The notes beneath the pieces are model-generated. The model saw only the letters and a program-made list of their open reading frames with translations, was not told the DNA's origin and ran no database searches. DNA of 64,000 bases from Girardia tigrina. Its lineage: Eukaryota. Below, piece by piece: positions 19,101-22,100 of this stretch. The stretch is taken from contig MQRK01228601.1 of the NCBI GenBank assembly GCA_001938485.1, positions 1 to 64,000 of the forward strand. Reading direction: 5' to 3'. A program made the translations under genes and the position numbers. Numbering within the stretch: position 1 is the stretch's first letter; each line of letters begins with the position of its first letter.

Positions 19101-22100
19101 ACAATCGTCTCAACGACAGACTGTGAACCCGGATTGAGATCGGAATCGCAAACAACAGCCGAATCGCGACCACAACCGCCACCGGTTCCGACAGAATACT
19201 TATCATTATTCAGATAATGTTTGGTCGGTTGCATTCAGATAAAGTCGTAATTCGGTTCAAATATTGAATAATAATCGATTTCAAATTTCGTTATTCCTCA
19301 TTCATTCATAAAAGATTAATGTAAATAAAGAGACAAGCGACAATTGAAAATTCCAAGAAATATAACCACTACAATATCAAAAGACCTTTATTAATTTCAA
19401 AAAAAAGCTCATTACACAAAACATGCAAATTTTTCCATATTTCAAAAATAACTCCGTTTATTGTAATCAAAATATTTTTCTTTTTCAATTTTAAATCAAT
19501 TGATTTTTTTACCACACACACAACGCTCACAACATAAACCATCAATTTCAACAATTTTAAAATTCGCAATTGGTTTCGATCAGCATAAATCACAATTAGT
19601 TTCGATCAGCAAAATAATTCACAAATAGTTTCGATCAGCAAAAAATTCACAAATAGTTTCGATTTAAAAAAGAAAGTCACGTAAATATCAATCATCAAAA
19701 ATTTTCTCTTTTCAAGTAACCTTAATTACCCCAGATAAACAAAACACTCAAGGCCATAATTCTTTTTATAATCATAATAACTAAATATCTAAAATATTAA
19801 TTCAAATTGTTTTTCCATTGAATAATTTCAAAATGATAAAAACTAATGAATTAATTTTACATTTCAATTTAATTTAATTTTCTCCAATTTGAAACGAATA
19901 TATATATAATAATGATAATAATTAATTTAAAAAACAAAAATATAATAATTAAATGTTCGAATCCGAACATGGATAGCTGTCGTCTGATAGGCCCATCCTA
20001 GTAGAATCGATTCAATTGTTTGCTGAAATGTCTGCGCAACATTCCTTAATCCAAAATGTATGAAGTTATATTCATAGAGTTCGAAAGGGGTGATGACGGC
20101 CGTTTTGTGTTTGTCAGCTTCCTATATTGGGATTTGATCATAAGCTTTCTCAATGTCGATCGTTGTGAAGAAATTACATTTAGATATCTGGTCAAATATA
20201 TCGATTCTTCTGGGAAGAGAATACCTGCTAGGTCTAGTTTTGGTGTTTAAGAGTCTGTAATCCCCGCAAGGTTGAAGTGTGCCATCCTTTTTCTTGACAA
20301 TCACCAGTCCCTATAGCTCTCTCGTATAATGTCCTCTTTGAGTAGCGAATCGAACTGTTTTCTAACAATCCGTAATATTGAGTTTGCCATGCTGCGGGCT
20401 GTTTGAGAAGATGGTGAACCGGATGATTCGATGGAAAGTGGTGGTAGGCTGATCATGTTGTGAATTTCCGTTGTCTTCCGGAGAAGTTGTTAAATTTTGT
20501 ATTCTATCAGAAGGTTGAAATGGGCTAAAAAATTGGAGCCCAAGATTGGTTGGCGGACGACGGCGACTGTCAATCTCCATTGGAAGTCTTCGTTTAATGC
20601 TGGAATATGGAACTGAGAACTGATTCACCCAATGTGTTGATTTGGCGTTGTTGACGGATATTACTTCGTAGTTGTTTTCTGATGAGTCATGCGGAAAAAG
20701 GGTTTAAGGAAGAACGCTAATATCTGCTTCTAAATCAATTAAAAAATGAAAATACTTGTTGTTGCGGCAGCCGCGCAGTGGAAGCGTTTTTTTTTACTTG
20801 TCGCTAAAAGGAGAGAGGATGTTTATTGAAATTATTATTATCATTTTTTATTATTATTTTTATTTTTATTATTTTTATTATTATTTTAATTCAAATATAA
20901 ATACATATATAACATACAGTCTCTCCGCGTAATTGTTCCATCATCTTTTGGCCCCTTTTCTGACAGAATTAATTTTAGACTTCTTCGATAGATCCTTGAT
21001 CATAATATTCTGTTCACATTCATTCACTCAGAGCAGTTTATTCGAATATATTATCTTTGAAGCATCGGAAATAATCAATACGTGTTCAGACACCTTGGTC
21101 GATAGTTTACGAAACGACGGATAGTTTTCGAAGAGTTTTTTTCATATTTTCAATATAATTCGTTCCCGCTCCTTCAAAATTCATACTTTCAAAAAAAGAC
21201 AAAAATCGACTAATATATCCTTTATTTTAATTCTAATTCAACTACTGTAATAAATCTTTATATTTGAAAATCGTCTGCAGAGTTACCGCTATTCAACATT
21301 CAAAATATTTAAACAAATTCACAATTTTTAACATAATTATCAATTCAATATATATATATATATATATATATTTACATTTATAAAAATATATATAAATATT
21401 AAATAATCTAATTACATTTTTTTACAAATTTACTATTTATAAAAATTAATTTTAACTAATAAAAATTAAATTCAAAACTGAACATTTACTATATATAAAT
21501 ATTTTTAGTTAAAATTTAATTTTAAAGAAAGAAAATTAAATTCGAAACTGAACACTTGTTTCTGTATGTGTCAAGTATGGTGAAAATAGCCTTGATCTTC
21601 ATGTTGTGTCGAAGGTGATTTTTAGGGGCCTCGGTGTTCGACTTCACTGTGTCTGTGACTCTTTTCTTGAAAATTTTTTTGCTCTCCATGAGCACAGTGT
21701 TTGATATTTCTTCGCTAATTTACCAAACCTTTGATGATAGAAACAAAGTTGTGATTCATCGATGTGGATTTTGTAGAGGCAATTCGAAATCCAATTGATT
21801 TCCGATTTAATCTCTTCTAATTTGGGCTCGATTGTCATCAATTATATATCTTCTAAGGAGAAATGATCATAAGCTTTGAGGCTGAGTTCCTCCAGAGTGA
21901 GCTACTGGAAACTTATCAGGTGTAGTCTGATCGAAGTTTGAAGAGAAGCAAGGAATTGCTGTTTGATGAATTCGCACTTGTTTAGATCTGCATTGGATTG
22001 GATTATTCAGTGCATTTCTCTAATTATTTGAGCAATTTGGTGGGTTTCAACTGGTATTCAGACCTGAGTTCGATCAAGCGGCATAAGGCTGGAACTTATG

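Follow-up and report, generated by a model that had tools for sequence, protein, structure and literature searches.

A decayed fragment of the host gene VPS45 lies in a short insertion at 20760..21554 of the window, the whole 64,000-nt (64-kb) stretch of DNA that was analysed, between two ends of the kind that bound long terminal repeats (LTRs). The insertion, e3, is best explained as the solo LTR of a gypsy-type retrotransposon whose LTR had its middle exchanged for host mRNA in the course of reverse transcription, an account to which we give even credence. We infer both the solo-LTR status and the capture at the level of RNA, with confidence near the midpoint of the scale. Taken alone, the VPS45 copy is a dead fragment, and its value lies in being a well-resolved witness of a repeat family with variable host cargo. 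The outline of the insertion is as follows:

20760..21554, no strand assigned: insertion e3, 795 bases, starting with TGTT and ending with AACA (TG..CA)
20755..20759, plus strand: left copy of the 5-bp target-site duplication of e3, CTTGT
21555..21559, plus strand: right copy of the duplication, CTTGT, an exact match to the left copy
20760..20800, minus strand: short GC-rich end, a remnant of the family end without its terminal hairpin of ~40 nt, in common with the end e6 at 61048
20831..20885, no strand assigned: trinucleotide microsatellite, a string of stops when read in the cargo frame
21185..21554, minus strand: AT-rich upstream part, a putative promoter or U3-like region, with a GC content of 5-25% in 100-nt bins
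21415..21554, no strand assigned: the 70-bp AT-rich terminus repeated in tandem, with 39/45 bases identical in the outermost part

A solo LTR is suggested because the unit has TG..CA ends, an exact 5-bp duplication and only 2-5 bp of perfect inverted repeat, the range found across the units described below; in e3 the perfect terminal match is 4 bp and 7 of the 20 terminal bases pair. Ends of TG..CA with a short inverted match and a duplication of 4-6 bp are the signature of LTRs as described in PMC12440569 and PMC6839031, and the duplications found here (5/5 in e3 and in the sister unit e2, 4/5 in the sister e1) fall within that range. Inside e3 there is no long internal repeat and no repeat between its two ends, and its locus shows no internal region, primer-binding site (PBS) or polypurine tract (PPT). 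The first and last 300 nt of each full copy (e1, e2 and e3; 3/3) share no 12-mers. No two-LTR copy, that is, a direct repeat flanking an interior, was found within the 64-kb window, so that e3 is a putative rather than an established solo LTR. The first-pass annotation had called e3 solo-LTR-like with a deleted terminus. The likeness stands, with its TG..CA ends, its duplication and the absence of an interior; the terminus itself retains TG and the duplication, and it is the ~40 nt just inside it that are missing. An alternative right end at 21976, marked by a second CA and the same 5-mer, was rejected: it is the end at 21554 that looks like those of the sister units, and the surrounding element resumes at 21555.

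That surrounding element is an older retrotransposon:

17123..22524, minus strand: decayed gypsy-type host element with gag-like DUF7041, reverse transcriptase (RT), RNase H and integrase, interrupted by e3 and e2

Its domains were located at 22099-22314 (DUF7041, E 3.2e-12), 20125-20310 (RT), 18458-18649 (RNase H) and 17687-18079 (integrase), and a 62-bp direct repeat is present at both of its ends, at 17123 and 22463. The insertion site of e3 is directly before what we take to be a protease-like motif. The window as a whole is ~70% AT and contains an intron-split Piezo gene (43900-62200, minus strand), an otopetrin gene (30700-31700, plus strand) and many transposon remnants, as seen with Pfam. 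Piezo and otopetrin together indicate an animal genome, and the AT content resembles that of planarian genomes (as given in PMC11410931). Elsewhere in the window, a BEL/Pao-like element at 6479-13275 (DUF1759 at 8209, E 1.2e-9) is interrupted by an element with terminal inverted repeats (TIRs) at 6810-8127. A partial ubiquitin match (E 7e-5) stands in frame ahead of the gag-like start of the BEL/Pao-like element, and is possibly another fusion of a host sequence to gag.

The VPS45 cargo of e3 was resolved into three blocks by an ungapped scan against L001, the VPS45 gene of a relative, with shuffled sequences as control. The blocks and the two lesions in them are:

21137..21184, minus strand: block A, the VPS45 start codon and codons 1-16; 33/48 nt to L001, 0/300 shuffles
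21004..21141, minus strand: block B, VPS45 codons 304-349 (ENYP region); 99/138 nt to L001, 0/300 shuffles; tblastn E 1e-16
20971..21003, minus strand: block C, VPS45 codons 364-374; 25/33 nt to L001, 0/300 shuffles
21136..21142, minus strand: A7 run, one base more than the two-Lys register of the relative, hence a frameshift
21028..21030, minus strand: TGA within block B, an in-frame stop

The blocks are collinear with the order of VPS45 in L001, and the cargo starts with the host start codon at 21184. The identity that had been proposed for this fragment was confirmed by independent searches. The Sec1 family search suggested by the first-pass annotation, run on the minus strand from 21141 to 20950 with X in place of the TGA, matched PF00995 with E 4.9e-8 at 33.1 bits, above the cut-off of 30.7. 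Vps45 was the sole Sec1/Munc18 (SM) protein matched by the fragment in the PDB (E 1.2e-7; 2/4 listed hits, the remaining 2 with E ~1-3). The closest full-length relatives of the cargo are P0002 and P0003 (2 hits among 16 candidates), and P0002 is Vps45, with E 1e-116 vs 7.5e-32 for the next SM protein. P0002 is encoded by L001 without introns, in one uninterrupted frame from 474 to 2141. L001 itself has the appearance of genomic DNA, and a mariner-like piece follows VPS45 in it. Since the VPS45 gene of the relative is intronless, the cargo of e3 cannot distinguish capture of RNA from capture of DNA.

Of 80 loci, 73 were usable, and a tree of the 46-residue block B was built from the 30 closest of these together with P0003 and the cargo (32 rows). 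In it the cargo forms a clade with L001 and P0003, its two nearest native relatives, with support of 100/98, and the next locus shares 23/46 residues; the cargo therefore comes from the host lineage, as had been proposed. It keeps 36/46 residues of P0002 and 34/46 of P0003, which share 42/46 with each other. Differences between block B and L001 fall 10/3/26 at codon positions 1/2/3, and the divergence of the block, judged from sequence, is species divergence with some decay. A profile made from distant VPS45 frames (26/39 long frames, from loci other than L001) leaves block A unscored (-2.5 bits), and the assignment of this block rests on L001/P0002. Its reading as the segment just upstream of ENYP was rejected (8-12/30 nt, vs 22/30 nt for the VPS45 start).

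The internal deletion noted earlier turned out to be two deletions. The first removes ~289 codons, from a junction within codons 10-16 to a rejoining point at codon ~300-305, with a look-alike Met-Lys stretch on both sides when judged against the gene of another species. This junction adjoins the A7 run, so that whether the cargo was in frame at birth is ambiguous. The second, between blocks B and C, removes 14 codons in frame, and no microhomology is evident there when it is judged against the sequence of the relative. A fourth VPS45 block beyond codon 374 was not significant (119/300 and 29/200 shuffles). An apparent match of the downstream part of e3 to the 5' flank of L001 (0/200 shuffles) was rejected as low complexity, since 9/79 unrelated window pieces score equally high. 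No 5'-UTR match of e3 to L001 was found, and the AT-rich upstream part has no significant match to the flanks or coding sequence of L001. Altogether, ~73/556 VPS45 codons are present in three pieces and a full-length frame of ~550 codons is absent. The frameshift in the A run and the TGA that had been reported are both there, and 11 stops follow block C in the cargo frame before the terminus, in line with the earlier view that the frame does not read through; because of these three features e3 cannot make Vps45. No fold or function is possible for the cargo, and the copy most likely does nothing now.

The window contains five further ends or copies of the e3 type:

792..2074, minus strand: sister unit e1, same ends, duplication 4/5; HEAT-repeat cargo whose first codon is the ATG at 1495, with 102 open codons from there to the end
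18726..19969, minus strand: sister unit e2, inside the same gypsy element as e3; exact 5-bp duplication (5/5); intact 170-codon frame
36585..37396, minus strand: sister unit e4, 137-codon frame from an ATG through the end; AT-rich end frayed
34137..34198, plus strand: sister end e5, GC-rich end only; nhmmer E 2.7e-8; frame open for 40 codons; beside an RT-like remnant
60975..61048, plus strand: sister end e6, short like that of e3 and found with it (score 33, reached by 0/40 shuffles)

No target-site duplication was found for e4, nor another end for e6. The three full-length units (e1, e2 and e3; 3/3) each hold a different host-type coding sequence in the same slot and sense. The cargo of e2 matches residues 1455-1600 of P0004 (55% over 147 aa, with one 17-residue in-frame gap), one of two library hits, one of the two being weak, and it derives from near the end of that protein, not from its start. 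The 170-codon frame of e2 (18726-19234) would make it a candidate for expression. A match to P0005 (Kunitz, E 2e-4) was taken as a chance hit. The cargo of e1 matches HEAT-repeat clusters only; a search for its name gave 0/261 candidates and no Pfam or PDB hit, and we presume it to be HEATR5 and an N-terminus. For the e4 cargo there was no usable Atlas hit. The VPS45 fragment had been counted as the second independent host capture; host capture it is, and the count is too low, since e2 holds a different host protein besides the HEAT-repeat cargo of e1, which probably makes e3 at least the third in the window.

On the cargo strand GC content rises from an AT-rich to a GC-rich end in all measured units, most weakly in e3, and their layout is like that of an asymmetric transcription unit: an AT-rich part, then an ATG, then a GC-rich end. 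A search for a primer site after e2 gave a single TGG, which is part of its own duplication. An autonomous partner was sought without result, with the end pattern in metagenome contigs (0) and with a terminal-peptide profile (0/461 candidates). Rfam gave 0 matches in 18600-21300. The AT-rich end of e2 has a short palindrome at 19954-19969, and this segment and 37383-37394 in e4 contain what we take to be a tRNA B-box-like word, with 0 Rfam hits. A solitary sequence inside a Piezo intron that resembles an AT-rich end (58563-58601; nhmmer E 0.76) may be chance or a further decayed end. Ahead of the e6 end, a 62-codon frame (60820-61048) lies in register with its remnant with one stop between, and has no Pfam hit.

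The first-pass annotation had spoken of a phase rule, to which e3 is an exception because its cargo does not read through the terminus. In four sisters the frames do stay open into and across the end, all in one phase, for 102 (e1), 170 (e2), 143 (e4) and 40 (e5) codons, and e3 is an exception with 15. No sign of protein-level selection on the terminal peptide was seen: in the shared terminal 90 nt the variable columns number 12, 14 and 9 of 29 by codon position, and pairs differ at 2 synonymous vs 17-21 nonsynonymous codons. With no synonymous or third-position bias, a conserved terminal peptide is not demonstrated. The Leu-Pro-Leu-Arg codons of the e3 remnant, which are in frame with block B, were given no weight, as a shared frame would arise by chance in one case out of three and 11 stops separate the two. 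The same ends can fold at the level of nucleic acid:

792-836, 18726-18770, 36585-36629 and 34154-34198, cargo strand: terminal hairpin of the long GC-rich ends, last ~41 nt

On the cargo strand the hairpin beats shuffled sequences in 3/4 long ends (z -2.7, -2.8 and -5.5; 0, 2 and 0 of 200 shuffles as good), the value for e2 being z -1.0 (32/200); on the opposite strand it beats them in 1/4 ends. Covariation in the hairpin is not significant with four sequences (269/500 shuffles). Such strand specificity is as expected of a single-stranded intermediate. The hairpin segment of ~40 nt is absent from both e3 and e6, and the short end may therefore mark a subfamily rather than damage to e3 alone.

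The main rival, which has a modest chance of being correct, is that each copy is a whole non-autonomous DNA transposon of the Pack type, with very short inverted ends, moved by a Ginger-like integrase-related transposase, and that it acquired its host DNA when a gap was filled or a fork switched template. Pack elements typically carry collinear cargo in several pieces, which counts for this rival, as does the fact that the full-length copies (3/3) stand alone, each with its own duplication. Ginger elements likewise end in TG..CA (PMC6839031), and Pack-TIRs are described in animals (PMC8277862). However, the duplication is 5 bp here and 4 bp in Ginger1 or 6 bp in Ginger2, as given in PMC6839031. 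No real inverted repeat was found: 6-7/20 terminal bases pair in the units, in contrast to 18-20/20 in the 4 TIR elements of the window. The strand specificity of the hairpin also speaks against a DNA transposon, as do the cargoes, which have the same sense in e1-e3 and, in e1 and e2, share the reading frame of the end.

According to a second rival, which is improbable, a piece of a VPS45 pseudogene was patched into an existing solo LTR or other repeat by break repair or LINE machinery, cargo and element having nothing to do with each other, and e3 need not join the family of e1 and e2. It gains from the absence of any other VPS45-bearing copy within the 64-kb window and from a weak sequence link between e3 and the family. 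Profiles of both ends, built from e1, e2 and e4, miss e3 at E<=10, so that membership rests on ~20 terminal bases, the short remnant and the shared anatomy; on this comparison of sequences, it is plausible that e3 belongs with e1, e2 and e4, and the family assignment made earlier survives in weaker form. Among 7461 TG-start sites, the AT-rich end of e3 nevertheless ranks first, self excluded, as a match to the AT-rich end of e2, with a small margin (13 vs 12), and the GC-rich remnant aligns in register with the family end across a gap of ~40 nt. The match score of the e3 short end to e5 was equalled by 2/40 shuffles. Patching is further opposed by the fact that all three full-length copies contain coding sequence of the host, placed and oriented alike, and by the lack of a poly(A) tail or inner duplication bordering the e3 cargo.

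Also improbable, and ranking behind the patching account, is a solo LTR in the opposite orientation, in which the GC-rich end would be U3 and the cargo an antisense unit leaving the LTR, comparable to the antisense ORFs of Grande/Retand. Antisense ORFs and antisense promoters in LTRs are described in PMC7264820, and e6, GC-rich end outermost, is found upstream of a gypsy pol on the minus strand. Against this orientation, it is the cargo strand that favours the hairpin, and e6 has neither a partner repeat nor a primer site. Helitrons leave no target duplication and have TC..CTRR ends; the 5-bp duplications and TG..CA ends here do not fit this, despite the 3' hairpin.

If e3 is a solo LTR filled from host mRNA, reverse transcriptase would have primed beside the GC-rich (U5-like) end and then switched to a co-packaged VPS45 mRNA. 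Two skips would have occurred within this mRNA, one of them at the short look-alike Met-Lys stretch, and copying would have reached the 5' end of the mRNA before strand transfer. The product would be an LTR composed of an AT-rich promoter, the host start and U5. The element would have integrated in the older gypsy, its interior would have been lost by LTR-LTR recombination, and decay would have followed. Template switching guided by microsimilarity is the mechanism described for LTR-mediated retrocopies (PMC5131818).

A broader version of this account is rather doubtful: that an animal LTR-retrotransposon lineage routinely swaps the middle of its LTR (the R region) for pieces of host mRNA, often starts, so that the host ATG opens a frame through U5 into gag. 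That gag can start inside an LTR is seen in the yeast element Ty1. If such a lineage exists, the N-terminus of Gag would come from the host and differ between sublineages, the formation of solo LTRs would scatter cassettes of promoter plus gene start across the genome, and the VPS45 copy would belong, as a dead element, to a short-ended subfamily. Variable coding cargo inside an LTR would be a high-copy route of exon shuffling. It might also give rise to triggers, antisense or piRNA, that act on housekeeping genes, and it would be a trap for gene annotation.

Several known systems share part of this anatomy. The cargo originates from Vps45 of the Sec1/Munc18 family (PF00995; PDB 6xm1, 6xjl), of which e3 keeps the small part described above. 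Capture of mRNA by LTR elements is known in animals, with the cargo between two LTRs (Tan et al. 2016, PMC5131818; maize Bs1 as cited there). Like the retrocopies described in that work, the units here combine partial host coding sequence in a probable LTR-type element with a short look-alike stretch at the first junction of e3 and what would be several switches, and the cargo is in sense and often in frame. Unlike them, where cargo replaces part of the interior (PMC5131818), the cargo here is enclosed by the ends of a single short unit that has one duplication pair, and varies by copy. Host-derived sequence within the LTR itself is found in the TRIMs Cassandra, Helenus and Ajax, which are also non-autonomous with duplications of 4-5 bp; as described in PMC10886601, each family has one fixed 5S- or tRNA-derived Pol III promoter, whereas the insert here is protein-coding, differs between copies and has no Rfam match. 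Two short LTRs with PBS and PPT and a small-RNA-derived insert, by which TRIMs are recognised, were not found in the units here. Pack-TIRs and the gene-carrying GingerRoot/Ginger elements are similar in that each unit stands alone, carries fragments of host genes and is flanked by a target duplication, with TG..CA ends in Ginger; they are described with clear TIRs and duplications of 4 or 6 bp (PMC8277862, PMC6839031), in contrast to an inverted match of 4-5 bp, duplications of 5 bp and asymmetric ends here. The giant planarian gypsy elements Burro and GYPSM1 likewise combine gypsy type, an AT-rich animal genome and host-like domains, which there belong to the internal polyprotein (PMC6431247); the likeness is by description, not by sequence. 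In the full-text literature searched, judged from listings and the papers cited here, no family was found with variable protein-coding cargo in a single LTR-like unit, and Repbase or supplementary files may describe one. In conclusion, the family is an unusual variant of transposon-mediated gene capture: known captures by LTR elements place coding cargo between the LTRs and known captures within LTRs are fixed small-RNA promoters, while the units described here hold coding cargo that changes from copy to copy.
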